The position numbers were made by a program, and so were the translations under genes. A DNA stretch of 64,000 bases from an uncultured Candidatus Saccharibacteria bacterium (GTDB lineage: Bacteria; Patescibacteriota; Minisyncoccia; Phycocordibacterales; JACOZG01): assembly GCA_965230925.1 (NCBI GenBank), contig OZ246403.1:266455-330454 (forward strand). Reading direction: 5' to 3'. The notes under the pieces were generated by a model. It saw nothing but the letters and a program-made list of their open reading frames with translations. It did no database searches and had not been told where the DNA came from. Below are positions 1,136 to 45,175 of this stretch, in pieces. The number at the start of each line of letters is the position of its first letter. The first letter of the stretch is position 1.

Positions 1136-3421
1136 TTATTCGGCAAGCCCCGTCCGAGAGTTATCATGATGGAAGGTCGGCCAGGAGCCAGGACTATTAA
1201 AGTTACCGCCAAAATCAAACACCCTCAATTCAGACCCTTGAACACTGCCATCATAAGACTTAATGTGTAGCAAATCAGACTGGCCGTCGCGCTGAAGATC
1301 AGCGATGGTCGCAGGCATGGACTTAATTCCTTGACGATTCCATTCTGGATGGAGCCCTATTGGCATCCCCGGCAGAAGACTTAAGTCGCTTCTATAAATA
1401 TATATATCGTCACCCGTTGGAATCGTCCCATCATTCTCTCCTTCCACTGCATAAACTAACTCCAAATCACCTCCGGGTTCTATATCATCGATGAGCCAGT
1501 TCCATGGTTCATGAGAGTGAAGGTGTTCCATAATAACTGGAGGATGAGCTACTCCAGAGGACTCATAGATAAAAGTGAGACCGGTACCAGCATTAAAAGA
1601 ACAAATGAAAATAATTTCTGTGGTGCCGTTATGATCCAAGTCTGCTGCCGATGGGCTATGAATCCAATTATCGCCAATGCAATACTCATCATAGTTAGTG
1701 TGAACATAGGGTCTCTGTGGCCAACCCGCAAGATCGGCACTATCTGGCTCTAACACATTAATAACAGCACGGTGAAAATTGAGGCCGAAGGGTGGATCAT
1801 AGTTTTCATGGCCAATAAACATTACATTGAGAGAGCCGTTATTATCGAAATCACCAAGAACCGGTGATTGGCGACTTAATTCTGGTGAAGCATATGCTTT
1901 GGGCCACCCGGGCAACTCTGAAGCATCCTGATAATGAACCGCGTGGAGTCTGGTGGTGGGAAGCTCTGATGTTTCTGGGGGAGCAAAAAACGCTTCGCCC
2001 AAATTAAACACAATTTCTACCTCACCATCACCATCTAGGTCACCGATCGCTGGACTGCCAGCTAAATTATGAGACAAAACACCGTCGGACCCGTCGATTG
2101 CAGCTGATTTTATAATAGGATAGTGGGAATTAAACAACTCACCATTAAGTCGGAAAACGAACAGCTTCGCTTCGTCCACCTGATTGGCATTTCTCCCAAA
2201 CCCTTTAGTAATTAATTCTTTCGTTCCATCATGATCAAGATCATAAGCCAGAACCGCAGGGATTGTCCCTGGTTGACTACCCAAGTCTCGCCCACCATTC
2301 GGCCAAAAACTGGCCAGAGTACCATCATAATTTAAAACCAATAACCGATTACTGAAATCGCTTCCACTCGTAATTTGAATAATGGGCAGAAGTTCTAATA
2401 ATCCATCATTATTAAGATCAGCGATACTCATAGGAGTAACTCTGGTTGACGAAACAATCCCACTACTCCCCCCAGAAACTCCACTTCGTGCTACTAAATC
2501 TACCGGGAAATTAGGTAAATCATTACCACTGGAATCAAGACCATAAAGACGACCGTTAATACCTAAGGCAAAGATCTCTGAGTGACCATTACCATCTACA
2601 TCAGCCACCGTTGGGCCCCAAATACGGACTCCAGGGAATTGTCGAACAAAATCTTCGGAAATTGAAACATTGGTAGGAGTAATGTTAATCGAGGTTGTTT
2701 CCACATCAACACCACCACAATTGTCGGTAACTGTGAGAGTCACATCATAATTGCCTAGAGAAGCATAGGTATGAGTGGCGGTAGCACCAGTGCCCGTGGT
2801 ACCGTCACCAAAATTCCAAGCGTAATTAGTAATATTGCCGTCAGTATCATCTGATTCTGAGGCGTCGAAACGTTGAGGATAATTTACACTACCAGCCGTT
2901 GGTCCAAAGAAATCAGTGGTTGGCAAAACATTGTTTGAACAGGGATCAAGCGCAACCACATTAAGATGAATCTGGAAATTAGCGGCTGCTCCACAATTGT
3001 CGGTCACAGTAAGGGTGATTGTCTTGTTTCCGGTGGTGGTATAGCTGTGCACGGCTGTGGAGCCAGAACCGTTACTACCATCTCCAAAATTCCAAGAATA
3101 GGTGGTGATAGAACCACCCTGATCGGAAGAACCAAGGGCGTTGAAGAGAACGGGGGTATTAACAGTCACCTGTCCCGCTGGCTCAGAGAAAGCCAGTGGC
3201 ACTGGAGGGGTGTTGTTTGCACAGGGTGCAGGGTTGGTGGTCCACTCAAGCAATGGTTCGGTGTTTCTTGGCACCGCCACTGGTGTTCCTTTACCAGGTG
3301 ACACCAGGGCTAGAAAACCGTCTGGTAAAATCGAAGAAGAAAGAAGATAACTGACATAGAAAATCACGATAAAAAACAAAATAAGTTTCAATAACCGAGG
3401 GGGAAATTCTGGTTGGGCCAT
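1136..3421 (-). CDS. Large secreted/cell-surface protein with tandem PKD domains and FG-GAP/VCBS (integrin-alpha-like beta-propeller) repeats
   Basis: 761 aa with an N-terminal TM/signal segment. Two PKD-like units are present (TITLTVTDNCGAAANF, YDVTLTVTDNCGGVD). Seven or more D-x-[DN]-x-[DN]-G repeats follow (DVDGNGHSEIF, ADLNNDGLLELL, YDLDHDGTKELI, GDLDGDGEVEIVF, GDFDNNGSLNVMF, ADLDHNGTTEIIF, ADLQRDGQSDLL). Confidence 0.75.
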   Translation of the reverse strand: MAQPEFPPRLLKLILFFIVIFYVSYLLSSSILPDGFLALVSPGKGTPVAVPRNTEPLLEWTTNPAPCANNTPPVPLAFSEPAGQVTVNTPVLFNALGSSDQGGSITTYSWNFGDGSNGSGSTAVHSYTTTGNKTITLTVTDNCGAAANFQIHLNVVALDPCSNNVLPTTDFFGPTAGSVNYPQRFDASESDDTDGNITNYAWNFGDGTTGTGATATHTYASLGNYDVTLTVTDNCGGVDVETTSINITPTNVSISEDFVRQFPGVRIWGPTVADVDGNGHSEIFALGINGRLYGLDSSGNDLPNFPVDLVARSGVSGGSSGIVSSTRVTPMSIADLNNDGLLELLPIIQITSGSDFSNRLLVLNYDGTLASFWPNGGRDLGSQPGTIPAVLAYDLDHDGTKELITKGFGRNANQVDEAKLFVFRLNGELFNSHYPIIKSAAIDGSDGVLSHNLAGSPAIGDLDGDGEVEIVFNLGEAFFAPPETSELPTTRLHAVHYQDASELPGWPKAYASPELSRQSPVLGDFDNNGSLNVMFIGHENYDPPFGLNFHRAVINVLEPDSADLAGWPQRPYVHTNYDEYCIGDNWIHSPSAADLDHNGTTEIIFICSFNAGTGLTFIYESSGVAHPPVIMEHLHSHEPWNWLIDDIEPGGDLELVYAVEGENDGTIPTGDDIYIYRSDLSLLPGMPIGLHPEWNRQGIKSMPATIADLQRDGQSDLLHIKSYDGSVQGSELRVFDFGGNFNSPGSWPTFHHDNSRTGLAE

Positions 3422-3431
3422 TTTATTAAAA

Positions 3432-6400
3432 TTAATTAAAATTCGGCAAGCTGGTGAGGCGCTGAATCAAGAGGATCAGGAGGTGCACAATAACAAGCAA
3501 CCTTTGACGCATCGTGGCTAAAATACCGGTTTGAGGAATGAGCTCGAAGGGAATGATGACGGTTTTCCCTTGATAGAGCTGATTCAATTTGGCGCGGGTG
3601 CTTGGACCAGCGAGGCCAAAACCCTCGCCGCCAGGACCAGTAATAGAATTTTCCAGTTGGAATCGCTTCACCGCCTCAGCCGTAGCCACATCATACCGAC
3701 GAGTGAAAGCACCGAGATAATATCCATTCACCGAGAGCATGTATTGCAGAATTTCTACCTGATCTCCCTCGCTAATACCGATGGCGAACGGACCAGTGAC
3801 CGCAGGCAAAACATAGCTCTGTCCAGCCGGCATGGTGGCCGCACCAGTATCAAGCGCCACCGTCGGTCGGCCATAAATATCGTACCCTGGGGTACCCTCA
3901 AGATCGCCACCAATACCACCGCGACTTCCTCCCCCACCACCCCCTCCGCCGCCGCCTCCACCAGAAGAACCACCGCCATCATCCTCATCTGCGGGAGTAT
4001 CGTCAGTTGGATCATCGTCTGAAGAGTCGGCTTCAAAGAAGTCTATAAGCGCTCGGTATCTGGGCGCGTCGGCTTCTGTTTGGCCAAGGTGCTCGAGAGC
4101 TCCCCAAGAACCAAATTCATTTGGCGTTCTAACATAAAGATAATGAGAGAAAACGCCACCGGTTATCTCGAACCAAGAATTAAGATAATCAACATAAATA
4201 TCGTACATTCGATCGTCACGATTGGCGGCTAGCAATTTAGCAGTTAAAGTTGAGTTATTGGTATTGCTACCTGTGGCCACCAGAGATTGACCTCCTTCGT
4301 AAGAAATAAGTGGTAAATTGTAAGCATCAGCAACAGTTTTATTGGCCTCCATTCGCGCCACCGCTTGGGGTAAATAAGTGTCTTCTAATTCATCGAGAAT
4401 GGTGTCCGTTGTGGCAGAATTCACTTGATTGTTGGTTACCAAGTCATCGGCAAGACCATTGCCAAAGTAAGGCGCGATCGCCACCGCATCAGCCTCAACT
4501 TCAGCCGAATTAATTCCCGACTCACTAAAGGCCGATAAAATATCGCTCAAAACCTGAGAACTCCCCGCTTGACCAGCAAGAACATTAATCACCCGATTGC
4601 TCTCATTGCCAAACTCAGTTTCAAAAATTTCAAAAATTTCGGCTGATCGCTTGGCATAAAACCTTCTGCGAGCGGCAGTGGCGCTACCGGAAAGCCCTTG
4701 AGCCAAACCTTCGGTCTCGGCATAGTCGTATTGGGTAAATTGCGGATTCCACACTTCATTGGAGTACTCCACATAAACTTCAAGCTGTGGGTCAAGATTA
4801 TCTTTAATCAGGCTCGCTAACTCCTGAACGTAATCATCATCTGCCAAGTGAGGAATGGTAAACCAAGGATCGATGTTAAGTTCATTGGCGAGCATAATGC
4901 TGTATTCGGGAGCGGGACCCTGACTCCGCGCTTGAGTGACATGATTAAGAGTGGTTCGCTCATCCCAGGTAGACATAAGTTGACCATTAGTACGGATCCA
5001 GTTCATCAAACGCAAAGCGGAAAAACCTTCGAGCTTAGTTAAGAAAGGTGGATAAAATGGCTCAGTGGCATAAGTACTCTCATAACCTGGCATAATGACT
5101 CGAATATTACTTACTGGATCCGCCACATCAGAACGCGTGATCGACAAACGAATGCCATTACTCGAAGGACTAGAAACAGTGAATTGATGCGTCCCGGTAC
5201 CGCCAGCTTGATCGAAGGTGCCAGAAGCATCGCGGCCCATTGTAATTTCACCATCACCTTCAAACATAAGAGTATAAGTGCCGCTCGGATACGTGCCAGA
5301 ACTCACATCGAGCATTACCGCCGACACAATTTGCGGTTGAGCAACTCCGTTGTCGTAAGGAATCTCAAGCGGATAGCCGAGACTGTCGGTCGGAACTGTC
5401 ACCCCACTCGAACTAAAGCTTCCAACATTACTTGCCACCCAAGGATTACTCCCACTTGAACCAGCTTGTTTGAACACATCGACGAAAACAATTTGGGTAT
5501 TGGAACTACGAATGGCATCGAGATTAATACCAATGGGACCGCCAGTGGGTACCGGATCGGGATCAACTACTGGCGCGGCACTTACTGTAATAGTTAAAGT
5601 GTCACTCGCGGAAAGAGCTCCATCGCTCACCAAAAGATTTAAAACATAAGTACCGGCCGTTGAGAAAGTGACGGTGGTACTCAAAGCGCTCGCATTGCTA
5701 AAAGTTACAGACGCGGGACCACTTACCGTACTCCAGGTATAGGTGAGAGTGTCGCTTGGAAGATCATCGTCAGTGGCGCTACCGCTTAAGCTCGCCGTGC
5801 TCGGGAGAGTAATGGCCTGATCACTGCCAGCATTCACACTCGGCGCTTGGTTAACCGGATCAGGATCAGCTTCCACATAGGCAAATTCCATTGCCCCGGC
5901 ATCGCAATCGGTACTTGGCCGAAGATTGCCGAACATGTCGCGCGGCACGGAGTCATGACAGACACCAATATCGGTACCGGGAGCCGAGCCACTTGAAAGA
6001 GCAAATTCATCGAGATTGGTGTAGGGCCAAGATCCCGTCCAAGGATTAGTCGATGTTTTTAAATTACACGAACCCGGACCGGTCGAGGAGCCACAGAATG
6101 TCATACCCGGAAAAGTGGTAGGGAATACGCCTGAACCATCGGCGTCATAGTAAAGATTATTATCAACTCTAATATCAGTAGCCTCGGTAACGGCTCCTTG
6201 TGTGCCCCAGAAACCGTGACTAGAACCGGTGTTTGCACCAACCACAAAGCTATTGTTGTAAACCCGCCAATGATCGGGCTCGTGGTAACTCGCATTACCG
6301 CTCTGCTCCGTACTACATTCCTCTATTCCAATTGCCGTGGCACTACTCGAGTTCTGGCCGTAACGCGTGCCGTCAAAAACATTGTTAGAAATTAATAAAC

Positions 6401-41037: not shown

Positions 41038-42690
41038 TTAATCCAATATCCGCGCCAGACGGATGAGGTCGTAGGGATATTCACCTTTGAAGTGCTCGAA
41101 AATGGGTTTGAGGGCCTGTTTGCCAAGTTTGCGGAAGGCGCGGTGGATCTCGGCGATTAAGTCTTCTTGACCGAGCGCGAGGTGGGCTAAATCGCTCGCC
41201 TTCAACTTCTTTTGCATCCGCAAATCTTCTAAGTGTTTGATGATCGTCCCCCTCGTGAGCTTACTCGCTTTGGCAATTTCGGCAATTTGCTTCCCCTCTT
41301 TCGCCAAGCGCAAAGTTTCTTCAATCCCACCTTTCTTGGTTTCTTTCTTTTTCTTCTCGGCGGTAATACTCCCACCTGAAGCGATAATAAAATTCTGATG
41401 CAAGCTTTTCAGCCGCTCACTATCTAGAGCATCAAATGCCGCCCTCACCTCGCCCGACTGCGCGCGGAATTCACCATCGCGCCCGAGCACCTCCGGATGG
41501 ACCTCCAGCGCTCGCTCATTGAAGCCGAGCAAGTGCAACCCCGAGAGGCTACGCAAACGCGAGAGCGCCACGTAACCCTGACCGTATTCGAAGGCTTGCT
41601 TAAGATCAACTAGCGCCCCGTCGAGCGACATCCCCTGGCTCTTGTGGACCGTAATCGCCCAAGCGAGCCGCAATGGTACTTGGGTCACGCGCGCCAAGAC
41701 CTTCTCACCCACTTGCACGCTCCACTCAAGAGGCTCGGCGACAATCGTTTTCCCTTGCCGCGTCTTCACAACCGGATAATTACTCATCTGTTCGAAGCCA
41801 GTCACTTCGCCCGTTGTCCCGTTCACAAACTTCCGCTCCATGCTATTTTTCGTAAACATCACCTTGGCGCCAACCTTAAGCGACAAGGTTTCTGGCGAGA
41901 GACAGTTGCGCTTCAGGCTCTCCACCATCCCGGGCGCACCACTACCCTTCATCTGGAAGTGACGCGGCGAGGCGCTAATCTTCTCGAGCTCGGCTTCATT
42001 AATCCGATCAACGTCGGCATTGTGGGGAAATAATTTTGTGAGATTCTGATGATCCGCACTCTCGGCCGCCACCACGCGCGTGGTCAGCGCCACGCGATGC
42101 GCCACCGCCAAGCGACCAGCGCGGAGACCGGTGAGCACCGCGAGGAAAGCCGGATCTTCCTGCCGATGTTGCTCGGAGAGATAACACACCATAAACTTCG
42201 CCACCGGCCACACCCTCGCCTCATAAGCAAATTGCGCCCGCTCGCCACCCTTAACCACCGGCGGGAGTTGGAAGAAATCGCCAACGAGAATAACTTGCAA
42301 GTCACCAAAGGGTTCCGTCGAGCCGCGCAATTCTTTACACAAGCGGTCTACTAAGTCGAGCATCCGCGCCGAGAGCATCGAGACTTCGTCGATCACCAAG
42401 ACCTTGGTTTTCCTCACCCTCTTCACCAAGCGCTCATCTTGCGCCAAGCGATCTAGATCATAATCGCTCAATTCTTGCTTTACCCCGAGGCCGCTCCAAG
42501 AGTGAATCGTCATCCCGCCTAAATGGGTCGCGGCAATCCCCGTCGAGGCCGTCACCGCCACTTCTACCCCGCGCTCGCGAAGGTAATTGAGATACTGATT
42601 AATTGTATGCGTTTTCCCACTCCCCGGCTCTCCGGTCAAAAAAACATTCGCTCCCGTTTTGAGAATATTAAGCGCCTCGAGTTGAGTCAT
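41038..42690 (-). CDS. Pif1/RecD-like superfamily 1 DNA helicase with a C-terminal helix-turn-helix domain
   Basis: Walker A (LTGEPGSGKTHT), Walker B (VLVIDEVSM), and VLVGDFFQLPPV. The C-terminal HTH is IAEIAKASKLTRGTIIKHL. Start re-assigned to MTQLEALNIL. Confidence 0.8.
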   Translation of the reverse strand: MTQLEALNILKTGANVFLTGEPGSGKTHTINQYLNYLRERGVEVAVTASTGIAATHLGGMTIHSWSGLGVKQELSDYDLDRLAQDERLVKRVRKTKVLVIDEVSMLSARMLDLVDRLCKELRGSTEPFGDLQVILVGDFFQLPPVVKGGERAQFAYEARVWPVAKFMVCYLSEQHRQEDPAFLAVLTGLRAGRLAVAHRVALTTRVVAAESADHQNLTKLFPHNADVDRINEAELEKISASPRHFQMKGSGAPGMVESLKRNCLSPETLSLKVGAKVMFTKNSMERKFVNGTTGEVTGFEQMSNYPVVKTRQGKTIVAEPLEWSVQVGEKVLARVTQVPLRLAWAITVHKSQGMSLDGALVDLKQAFEYGQGYVALSRLRSLSGLHLLGFNERALEVHPEVLGRDGEFRAQSGEVRAAFDALDSERLKSLHQNFIIASGGSITAEKKKKETKKGGIEETLRLAKEGKQIAEIAKASKLTRGTIIKHLEDLRMQKKLKASDLAHLALGQEDLIAEIHRAFRKLGKQALKPIFEHFKGEYPYDLIRLARILD

Positions 42691-42730
42691 GCGGTTATGG
42701 TAAACTGATCCGAGAAATAAACCAAGATTA

Positions 42731-42958
42731 ATGAAAAAGCGATTCTCACACTGGCTTGCCCGATATTGGGAAGTGGAACAATACAACTTTAAACATCCCT
42801 TTGATCGAAAGTATCCTAAAGGATACGGGCGCCATTTTCTTGCCGGATTACTAATGAGACCGCTTTATCTGATGGTAATCTTTGTTTTTAGTCTAGCCTT
42901 CTTTTTAATCTTCAAACTTCTAACAAAGTTCCTTGTCTGGGTAGATAAGGTGGTTTGA
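42731..42958 (+). CDS. Hypothetical small membrane protein (75 aa)
   Basis: One C-terminal TM helix. The ORF lies at the left edge of the low-GC islet. Confidence 0.3.
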   Translation: MKKRFSHWLARYWEVEQYNFKHPFDRKYPKGYGRHFLAGLLMRPLYLMVIFVFSLAFFLIFKLLTKFLVWVDKVV

Positions 42959-43018
42959 GGTGTCAAAATCCAAACCGATTAGTGGTAAAGTGGTAGTTGA
43001 TTACTCAGTCTGATCCTA

Positions 43019-44044
43019 TTATTCCGCATTGAACAATGTATAATCTCCAAACTCGCTAATAGTGATGTCTCGAGATTTTCTGTGATTTTTATAATCAAAT
43101 CCCTTTATGAGCTTATCTAGTTGAGGTTTGTCTTTCGCCACAAAACACTCATAGCTATGGATAAGTATCAATGAGTTTATATCCCGTACTTGTTTTTTAT
43201 CTAGCTTCATAAAATGTTCCGTCTGGGATTTCATACTCGGTTTTATACAAATGCAAATATCAGGTCTTAGAGGGAAAAATACTGTTGAGTGTGGTGATAA
43301 CAGCCCATTCATTATCTTCGAATGTGATACGGTAAAGCATGGATTATCGGATGTCGCGAAAGAAGTGTCTTTTGGAGCTACGAGAAATAGCCATTGCATT
43401 TCGAAGATCTTCTTTGCCTGGCGTGGTACCTTGAAAACACCTTTCGAGTGACCGGTTTTTGTGAGGCCCACTTTTACATCATCACCGTGTATGGCTTCAA
43501 AAAGCTGTGCGTTTATTTCTTCCTGTGACATGGTACTAATCTTTTCCAATGCCTCCTTTTCATATTTATTATTTGGTGCGTGTTTGAGAATATCCTCTTT
43601 AGACATCTTTACCTTATCCGGAGACGACAGGTCTTTTCTCATGGAATACTTCGTTTTGGAATCAATCAGCTTATTCATCTCCTCTCGATGTTTAGGCGTT
43701 CTTATGTATTGCAAAGCTACATAAAAAGCGATGCAACTACGGTCCATTCCAGATAGTTGTTCTTGTTTAGTAAAGTCAACTTTTCTAATGGCTTCAATGC
43801 CCTTTTTATCAATAGTAGCTGTTACCTCTTCCGGTAGATAGGACTTTTCATTCTCGTCCTCAAGCACATTGAAATCTTTGCACCAAAATAAGGGCGACTT
43901 TGTGTTCGCAGTATCGCACTTACCTTGAGGGATTATAAAAACATTTAGATGGTTTTTAGTTCCAGGTATGTGCCATTGTTCCAGATATTTATCTTGAACA
44001 GTGTGATGTTTTTGCCATGACACATTATTATTGAGTTTTGACAA
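43019..44044 (-). CDS. DUF4238-family protein (candidate anti-phage effector; cf. the Rst_DUF4238 defence family)
   Basis: 341 aa. N-terminal KHHTVQDKYLEQW resembles the HY[VI]PQFYLxxF motif of DUF4238. WLFLVAPKDTSFATSDNPCFTV resembles the conserved [FI]TSDNPV motif. Family membership recalled from memory, not searched. GC of the ORF is about 35%, against about 50% for its neighbours. Confidence 0.65.
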   Translation of the reverse strand: MSKLNNNVSWQKHHTVQDKYLEQWHIPGTKNHLNVFIIPQGKCDTANTKSPLFWCKDFNVLEDENEKSYLPEEVTATIDKKGIEAIRKVDFTKQEQLSGMDRSCIAFYVALQYIRTPKHREEMNKLIDSKTKYSMRKDLSSPDKVKMSKEDILKHAPNNKYEKEALEKISTMSQEEINAQLFEAIHGDDVKVGLTKTGHSKGVFKVPRQAKKIFEMQWLFLVAPKDTSFATSDNPCFTVSHSKIMNGLLSPHSTVFFPLRPDICICIKPSMKSQTEHFMKLDKKQVRDINSLILIHSYECFVAKDKPQLDKLIKGFDYKNHRKSRDITISEFGDYTLFNAE

Positions 44045-44324
44045 TTTTCTTTACTACCGAATCTACAAAAATCCTAAAAGCCAGTCTTTTCTCCTTTTTA
44101 TAAACAATTTTAATTCCTAAAAGATGCCCCCTGGGACAAATAAGCTCTTTACTGGAAACTGAAACTTTAGGTTCAATGATACGATCAATATACATCCGGC
44201 GGAGGTTGCCGGGACCGTCTTTCTGATACAGACAGATCAGAGAGCTACACTTCTCACAATTTATTTTCAGTAAACGTGAATAGACACCTCGATCTTTCCT
44301 AAACTTGTCATTTTTTAATTTCAT
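44028..44324 (-). CDS. Small Cys-rich (zinc-ribbon-like) protein translationally coupled to the DUF4238 gene
   Basis: 99 aa after re-assigning the start to the ATG at 44324. It carries NCEKC...ICLY...ELICPRGH. The 3' end overlaps the DUF4238 start by 17 nt. AT-rich. Confidence 0.45.
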
Positions 44325-44375
44325 AAAACCACAAACACAATATATAAACCTGAACCCCGCCTTCGCGGACCGAAG

Positions 44376-44394
44376 ACGGAGAGGGAGGGATTCG
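44376..44394. repeat. 19-bp direct repeat of the 3' end of tRNA-Ser(GGA): att-like integration scar
   Basis: ACGGAGAGGGAGGGATTCG at 44376-44394 is identical to 44519-44537, which is the acceptor/T-arm 3' side of the tRNA. Confidence 0.6.
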
Positions 44395-44519
44395 GTCACG
44401 CGTAATTTTCTGCTGAAAATTCGCTCGACCCCGCCTCGCGCCGTCGCGCTGCGGCTTTCGAATCCGCCACTCACAATGCCAAATTTCACTGCAACTGAAC
44501 ACAGTAAAATTTGTCATTA

Positions 44520-44606
44520 CGGAGAGGGAGGGATTCGAACCCTCGGTACCGTTGCCGATACACAGACTTTCCAGGTCTGCCCATTCGACCGCTCTGGCAC
44601 CTCTCC
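44520..44606 (-). tRNA. tRNA-Ser (anticodon GGA)
   Basis: 87 nt with a long variable arm. Anticodon arm CAGAC-CTGGAAA-GTCTG. T arm GAGGG-TTCGAAT-CCCTC. Confidence 0.85.
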
Positions 44607-44614
44607 AAGTGAAT

Positions 44615-45175
44615 CTAAATTGAACGGTAAACGACCAGGCTAATGATACCGAAGGCAAGCGCTAAGTAAAGAACCCACTGAGCCAAGACCAAAATCAAGG
44701 CCAAGGGTTGAAGCAAATAGGCAATAAGCAAAATGACTCCCACGCACTGGAAAAGCATTTTTATTTTCCCAGACCAATTGGCTTTGATCTCCACCCCTTT
44801 TTTGTTTAACCGAAAGTAAGCCACGAAGATAAGCAGAAGTTCAATTGCTACCATCGCGGCGGCCAACCACCAAGAGAGAAGACGCGAAGCAAGAACAAGC
44901 ACCGTTGAACCAATGAGTAATTTATCGGCGAGTGGATCAAAAAGTTTTCCCCAAGTGGTGATCTGCCGTCTCGTTCTCGCCAAGGCACCATCAAGAACAT
45001 CAGAAAATGCTGCTATGGAAAAAACAACAAGCCCCCAGGAATATTCTCCTTTCCAAAGAAAATAAAACACCACCGGGATCATGAGAAAGCGAAAAGCGGT
45101 TACGAGATTAGGCGTAATGAAACGAGGAAAAAGGCGCAACAAACTTTTATCGAGCAGCCAGTCAACGGCGCGCAT
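44615..45175 (-). CDS. pgsA: CDP-alcohol phosphatidyltransferase (PgsA-like)
   Basis: DVLDGALAR...[10 protein letters not shown] (D-G-x2-A-R...G-x3-D-x3-D motif) and multiple TM helices. Confidence 0.8.

Follow-up and report, generated by a model that had tools for sequence, protein, structure and literature searches.

The 64,000-nucleotide (nt) stretch analysed here, hereafter the window, belongs to contig OZ246403.1 of an uncultured Candidatus Saccharibacteria bacterium (assembly GCA_965230925.1) and carries, between a tRNA-Ser gene and a Pif1-like helicase gene, an AT-rich islet that encodes a protein of the DUF4238 family. Read along the minus strand, the locus begins with tRNA-Ser(GGA) (44519..44607; called by ARAGORN; Rfam tRNA 56 bits, E = 7e-11), followed by a spacer of 124 nt, a perfect 19-nt copy of the tRNA 3' end (44376..44394), a cysteine-rich open reading frame (ORF) of 98 amino acids (aa) at 44028..44324, the DUF4238 ORF and then the helicase gene. 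When called mechanically the DUF4238 ORF has 341 aa (43019..44044) and reaches a TTG at 44044, and from an in-frame GTG at 44023 the coding sequence has 334 aa (43019..44023). The G+C content (GC) is 0.36-0.40 over approximately 42650-44375, compared with 0.485 for the whole window, and windowed GC together with block statistics places the islet at 42692..44375, with a GC of about 0.38. No other block of its length in the 64 kb has a GC as low as that of 42731-44375 (1,645 nt, GC 0.38); same-length windows elsewhere have a minimum of 0.427, and against them z = -5.3. A first-pass annotation of this DNA had remarked upon the low-GC islet, the two minus-strand ORFs and the nearby tRNA-Ser(GGA), all of which are confirmed here; it went on to interpret the ORFs as a translationally coupled pair of zinc-ribbon and DUF4238 genes, forming a compact and mobile anti-phage cassette.

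The assignment to DUF4238 is sound. The large ORF matches PF14022 over its full length (profile positions 1-280 of 281) with 99 bits and E = 4.3e-28, where the gathering cut-off is 27 bits, and it bears both of the motifs by which the first-pass annotation had recognized the family, HHxxQxxYLxxW at the N-terminus (here within HHTVQDKYLEQW) and TSDNPC towards the C-terminus. Residues H13, H14, Q17, Y20, L21, Q23, W24, T231, D233, P235 and C236 are invariant among 35 sequences including the window protein, and the invariant HH...Q..YL, GHSK and T-x-D-x-PC positions may point to an enzymatic or ligand-binding pocket. Close relatives retrieved by a database search form 106 clusters, every one of metagenomic Patescibacteria origin, and with few exceptions they have 330-332 aa and an N-terminus reading M-[AQ]-K-H-H. 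The protein also matches phrog_29785 (E = 6.8e-9) and the PADLOC model DUF4238-Pers (PDLC03000; E = 3.3e-10, 37.9 bits), the latter only over profile positions 5-236 of 309; of the supposed defence pair PADLOC recognizes this protein alone, the small protein having no match. Its AlphaFold2 model has a mean confidence score (pLDDT) of 88.8, with residues 1-11 below 50, and its fold resembles a protein of phage Smp131, which we take to be a P2-like phage.

The start of the gene is damaged. In a DNA alignment, nine homologous loci read ATGGC-AAAACATCA at the start codon, where the window reads ATGGCAAAAACATCA, with one additional A in the run 44013-44009. The ancestral ATG (44018-44016; with the A5 run, 44009..44018 on the minus strand) is situated 9 nt past the small gene's stop, and this single insertion puts it out of frame: translation from it would yield MAKTSHCSR* and end, and removal of one A restores an ORF of 332 aa beginning MAKHHTVQ..., which is exactly the family length. 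An independent Logan assembly from this population has the same A5 run, in a contig present in five samples, so the lesion is reproducible. Beyond the start region all 332 codons are uninterrupted. The 341-aa ORF, and the 17-nt overlap with the small gene to which the first-pass annotation attached its idea of translational coupling, exist only because the in-frame TTG at 44044 and GTG at 44023 happen to lie upstream; the overlap depends on the TTG, which no homologue uses as a start, and the GTG is located 4 nt past the small gene's stop. Judged by the alignment, then, the overlap is an artefact of the frameshifted start and lends the coupling claim no support. The public annotation (P0122) begins instead at V60, giving 282 aa and losing the invariant HH motif.

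The DUF4238 gene is, on present comparisons, of foreign origin. Window positions 44019..42950 share 81.6% DNA identity (blastn) with positions 2799-3872 of locus L081 (GCA_040879605.1), where the encoded protein is 87% identical (70% for L083, GCA_030650355.1), and the flanks are unrelated. Every DUF4238 locus examined loses DNA homology to the window approximately 5 nt upstream of the ancestral ATG. Since identity to L081 is confined to this interval and homology breaks so close to the ATG, the transferred piece may be placed at 42950..44019 (-) and put at about 1.07 kb, that is, the DUF4238 gene with some 70 nt of 3' flank, with its left junction 7-9 nt past the small gene's stop. In 13 of 15 loci the DUF4238 gene is richer in AT than its host, and the clade is patchy, with its 106 clusters set against approximately 8,000 for the flanking helicase. 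Substitutions between the window gene and L081, its closest relative, give a ratio of non-synonymous to synonymous rates (dN/dS) of 0.057 and all family-invariant residues are kept, from which it appears that the gene was under strong selection until recently. The description of the islet as a mobile defence cassette therefore survives in part, in that DUF4238 is compositionally foreign and its DNA homology is limited to gene plus 70 nt; no integrase or other defence gene lies nearby, and we found no flanking repeats around the insertion. A 13-nt inverted repeat close to the insertion ends (42961-42973/44031-44043) was considered and dismissed as chance, being 85% complementary, AT-rich and having one arm within the conserved end of the small gene's coding sequence.

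The two genes are almost certainly not partners in a module joining a zinc protein to DUF4238, and are neighbours by accident. A hidden Markov model (HMM) of the DUF4238 clade, which gives E = 7e-173 on the window as positive control, has no match within 4 kb on either side of the small gene, even at E<=10, in any of 80 species loci. Reciprocally, the small-protein HMM (E = 3e-54 on the window) has none in 42 DUF4238 loci, 32 of which are distinct. The small gene, which the proposed module would have as a conserved partner, is thus absent from all 42, and no gene is kept in every locus of the clade. The small gene itself would seem to be resident at its site, because its closest relatives, L001 and L002, preserve the same order of tRNA-Ser(gga) and small gene; these two loci have the tRNA-Ser and the small gene in common with the window, and nothing else.

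Elsewhere the clade keeps different company. In about 11 of the 32 distinct loci, including those of all the closest relatives of the window gene, DUF4238 stands head-to-head with a gene in which LexA_DNA_bind, Peptidase_S24 and N6_N4 methyltransferase domains are fused (L081 962-3798, L083 3502-5999 and L103 404-3969, and also L085, L092, L093, L096, L112, L113 and L119). The endonucleases beside this fusion gene are of type II and vary, from Tsp45I in L081 to a helix-turn-helix (HTH) controller with TaqI in L103. The relatives share a conserved intergenic block just before the DUF4238 ATG that contains TTATCCACA and may serve the LexA-like fusion protein as its operator. It is found at approximately 2775-2799 of L081 and at the same position in L083, L085, L092, L093, L096, L113 and L119; its TTATCCACA(AG) string is identical to the DnaA-box consensus, and is accompanied by a TATAGA-AAATAAATAGAAAGTATACAA stretch. 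The window copy lacks the block, and an HMM for the methyltransferase fusion finds no match in the 64 kb. Such a restriction-modification (R-M) setting speaks for a defence-related function of the clade, and the clade may represent a regulated add-on to type II R-M, controlled by the self-cleaving LexA/S24-methyltransferase through the TTATCCACA block. That its members confer phage defence when intact we would put at even chances, by family analogy and by the association with R-M.

The 19-nt repeat admits of a simpler origin than integration. It is a perfect direct repeat (44376-44394 = 44519-44537; none expected by chance), both copies of which are upstream of both genes, on the tRNA side and 143 nt apart, so that the islet is not bracketed; there is no third copy, even allowing up to 3 mismatches. 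In L002 an intact second tRNA-Ser(gct), with a 3' end identical to the second 19-mer of the window, intervenes between tRNA-Ser(gga) and the small gene; a disrupted second tRNA-Ser copy occupies the corresponding place in L001. The distances to the small-gene ATG are similar (51 nt for the window 19-mer and 57 nt for the tRNA end in L002). Most likely, then, 44376-44394 is what remains of a tandem tRNA-Ser that was ancestral to the site and has decayed, although it may be the attachment (att) scar of some older event; whichever its origin, it does not delimit the DUF4238 insertion. Of the att-like repeat first reported here, the perfect duplicate of a tRNA 3' end is real, and a role at the edge of a mobile element is unlikely.

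As in the window, DUF4238 or R-M islands do have a tRNA-Ser gene (gct, tga or gga) upstream of them in four of the seven other tRNA-bearing loci (L083, L086, L092 and L103), and the group L086-L088 also counts among such loci. No duplicated tRNA 3' ends or att sites were found in the other tRNA-adjacent DUF4238 loci, and there may be a tRNA-Ser-linked hotspot that lacks classical att sites. In L086 a LAGLIDADG/HTH protein (2324-3331) is encoded between two tRNA-Ser genes directly upstream of the DUF4238 locus, with a 168-aa protein encoded tightly between the second of these tRNAs and DUF4238.

We consider it probable, taking the scenario as a whole, that a solitary, start-damaged and horizontally acquired DUF4238 gene sits behind a resident gene of beta-tent fold. 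The small gene would natively follow tRNA-Ser(GGA) and the relic of a second tRNA-Ser, and about 1.07 kb of foreign, AT-rich DNA carrying DUF4238 alone would have been inserted 7-9 nt after its stop. In the process DUF4238 would have been orphaned twice over, through loss of its native upstream region together with the usual divergent LexA/S24-methyltransferase neighbour, and through displacement of its canonical ATG by the additional A. If the gene is still expressed, transcription would read through from the promoter of the small gene or of the tRNA, and translation would start at GTG 44023 or TTG 44044; we would give somewhat less than even odds that it still yields a functional protein. 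By analogy with its family, such a protein might act as a single anti-phage factor, comparable to the T7-blocking DUF4238 of the P2 hotspot. Several observations weigh against this account. The small gene of the window is unusually AT-rich (its GC is 0.13 below that of the window, a deficit reached in only 3 of 78 other loci), for which reason it may have been acquired together with DUF4238 from an unsampled donor. No genome with an empty site was found, the closest relatives of the helicase (79% and 62% identity) being non-syntenic. The window protein is only 12-22% identical to the validated DUF4238 type, and the gene may be a fresh pseudogene.

The last of these is the most serious rival, and in our estimation a somewhat unlikely one. 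It holds that DUF4238 is a decaying and inert remnant of an old R-M/DUF4238 island, the other parts of which have been deleted. The reproducible frameshift of the canonical start, the absence of partner genes and of the regulatory block natively found upstream, a 282-aa product without the invariant HH motif as called by gene finders, and promoter-like sites no more frequent than chance are all as expected of such a remnant; yet the 332 remaining codons are uninterrupted and retain every family-invariant residue, dN/dS is 0.057, and the in-frame GTG and TTG just upstream preserve the whole domain, and therefore any decay must be very recent. A coupled two-gene cassette of cysteine-rich protein and DUF4238, acquired jointly next to tRNA-Ser, has in its favour that the genes abut on one strand, that both are AT-rich, that a tRNA and a repeat of its 3' end are close by, and that, with the canonical ATG disabled, full-length DUF4238 could be translated only from a start no further than 4 nt past the small gene's stop or 17 nt before it. 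We regard it as highly improbable: neither gene occurs at the other's loci (0/80 and 0/42), DNA homology to DUF4238 loci reaches upstream of the ancestral ATG by no more than about 5 nt, leaving the small gene outside, L001 and L002 keep the tRNA-Ser and small-gene synteny without DUF4238, the overlap stems from the frameshift, and the small gene has no PADLOC match.

An integrative island targeted at tRNA-Ser, with the 19-nt repeats as attL and attR and the islet as cargo, is likewise improbable, if a shade less so. A tRNA 3' end is the classic att core region, tRNA-Ser recurs upstream of the DUF4238 islands in L083, L086, L092 and L103, and the base composition is atypical (GC 0.38 versus 0.485), but the placement of both copies upstream of the genes, without a third, is not that of attL and attR, the islet has no integrase, L002 has a real tandem tRNA-Ser to which the second copy aligns, and other tRNA-adjacent DUF4238 loci show no duplicated tRNA ends. 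Little more room is left for a newly born operon, put forward jointly with the R-M add-on described above, in which DUF4238, deprived of its own ATG and promoter, would depend on the beta-tent gene for transcription and on termination-reinitiation at GTG 44023 for translation; if true, the expression of a defence gene would be slaved to a conserved zinc protein, possibly one that senses nucleic acid or a ligand.

What the solitary, inserted DUF4238 gene might do in its present host is best seen beside the known system. A single DUF4238 protein from a P2 prophage hotspot of E. coli confers strong resistance to T7 (Rousset et al. 2022, PMC9122126), as the first-pass annotation had rightly stated of the family; its molecular function was described as unknown (PMC9122126), and our literature search found no later paper on the mechanism. 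The window gene belongs to the same Pfam family, PF14022, over its full length, matches the PADLOC and PHROG models of the phage-borne type at E of about 1e-9 to 1e-10, and is likewise a single, horizontally mobile, AT-rich accessory gene without a conserved partner. It differs in its sequence, tblastn of the window protein against 50,697 phage records returning no match; in its host, a member of the Patescibacteria, or Candidate Phyla Radiation (CPR); in its position outside any prophage, satellite or defence island; and in its frameshifted canonical start. Protection was shown for the E. coli homologue, the window copy being known by sequence, and a defence role for the latter would be an extrapolation, since it is remote from the validated type in identity, in the failure of the phage search and in the partial coverage of the PADLOC model. 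Compared with the Paceibacteria copies in L081 and L083, the window gene is of the same clade and reaches the same 332 aa once its frameshift is repaired; those copies have an intact ATG, the upstream TTATCCACA block, the LexA/S24-methyltransferase and a type II endonuclease, all of which are absent here.

Adjacency, low GC, a tRNA and an apparent overlap together mimicked a compact defence operon, and comparison of neighbourhoods reveals chance and a frameshift artefact instead, which recommends caution wherever such features coincide. There remains, in a CPR genome, a remote DUF4238 copy that was probably damaged recently; it belongs to a known candidate-defence family, is no new two-gene system and provides one data point on how the sparsely defended, streamlined Patescibacteria gain and lose single-gene defence candidates. 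The recurrent link between DUF4238 and LexA/S24-methyltransferase R-M could help to reveal the DUF4238 mechanism, and the self-cleaving-repressor/methylase fusion could form with it a regulated module of R-M plus DUF4238. A further by-product, like that link perhaps more useful than the DUF4238 finding itself, is the large and unannotated family of Patescibacteria zinc proteins to which the small gene belongs.

The small protein is not the classic zinc ribbon it was first taken for. Its predicted structure matches the beta-tent fold (Yippee/Mis18-, MsrB-, CULT- and RIG-I-CTD-like, CTD being the C-terminal domain), and in the model a beta-tent topology is combined with a zinc site of two ligand pairs; across the family the CxxC...CxxxH ligands are invariant, and there is a 16-letter core. 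In the beta-tent zinc proteins with which it may be compared (Yippee/Mis18, MsrB, CULT and the CTDs of RIG-I, MDA5 and LGP2) the site differs, the fourth ligand of the small protein being His, and there is no significant sequence match to the named families Yippee-Mis18, SelR/MsrB, CULT and RIG-I_C-RD. No Pfam or NCBIfam model is matched at E<=1 and no PDB entry by sequence; RIG-I_C-RD appears sub-threshold, in two distant family members only. Homologues at approximately 70-80% identity number at least 430, and the gene is present in at least 144 species of a collection with one genome per species, the hosts being labelled Paceibacteria, Kaiserbacteria, Uhrbacteria, Moranbacteria, Saccharibacteria, CPR3 and others. 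An exhaustive profile search gave 494 representatives at 50% identity, almost all of them stand-alone proteins of 100-130 aa; fusions are rare, heterogeneous and possibly artefacts of gene calling. The family appears to be large, unannotated and, as far as sampled, restricted to Patescibacteria.

The small gene has no conserved neighbour, the largest neighbour family being present in 6 of 80 loci, and those that surround it include tRNA synthetases, gyrase, Pol III delta', Pth, Maf, TatD, NUDIX and deformylase genes. A role as mobile or defence cargo, which variable context, two copies in one metagenome-assembled genome (MAG) and frequent tRNA adjacency might recommend, was considered and ruled out by these housekeeping neighbours, among which there is neither an integrase nor a defence theme. 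The MAG in question is Zambryskiibacteriota PATE-6, in which the two copies (L019 and L020) occupy separate contigs and encode proteins 71% and 66% identical to that of the window. In 13 of 80 species the small gene is preceded by a tRNA gene at a distance of less than 600 nt (within 64 nt in nine, on the same strand in 12), well above a rough expectation from tRNA density; the loci concerned, in which the small gene lies at about 4001, include L002, L008, L021, L023, L042, L047, L060, L065 and L080, and the tRNA types are Ser, Gln, Tyr, Thr, Lys, Pro and Val. This arrangement hints at co-transcription with tRNAs, or at a tRNA-related role.

The GC of the family averages 0.049 below that of its own flanks (78 genomes), and is often 0.10 to 0.18 below in hosts above 46% GC; part of the compositional dip in the islet is intrinsic to the small gene and not foreign. 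The low GC is therefore composite, arising from the foreign segment with DUF4238, from a small gene that is AT-rich by nature and from a spacer of 260 nt between the insertion and the helicase. Nothing in this last stretch was matched in the libraries searched or in the fetched loci. Promoter and terminator scans of the islet gave counts no higher than chance, an Rfam scan of 42600-44700 found the known tRNA and no second tRNA or other RNA, and a Pfam scan found no recombinase or integrase domain in the islet's three ORFs. The surrounding genes of the window are housekeeping genes, without a prophage, satellite or defence-island setting; no other defence genes were found near the islet, and the other PADLOC matches in the 64 kb, beside that of DUF4238, are to generic domains.

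The 260 nt of AT-rich DNA are occupied by an antisense ORF of 75 aa (42731..42958, plus strand; from the ORF listing), which has one hydrophobic segment, LMVIFVFSLAFFLIFKLLT (Kyte-Doolittle maximum 2.56). It has no match in Pfam, NCBIfam or PHROG and no homologue among 126 fetched loci, and may be either a real small membrane protein or AT-rich spacer. The helicase beyond it (41038..42690, minus strand; start ATG at 42690) is a core flanking gene outside the islet, with a GC of 0.548, a Pif1-like domain (Pfam PIF1, E = 1.7e-34) and a C-terminal HTH_40. Its PADLOC matches (PDC-S68, RecD-like) represent common helicase domains and imply no defence role, and the gene is near-universal in Patescibacteria, with approximately 8,000 relatives in the database at E<=1e-60.

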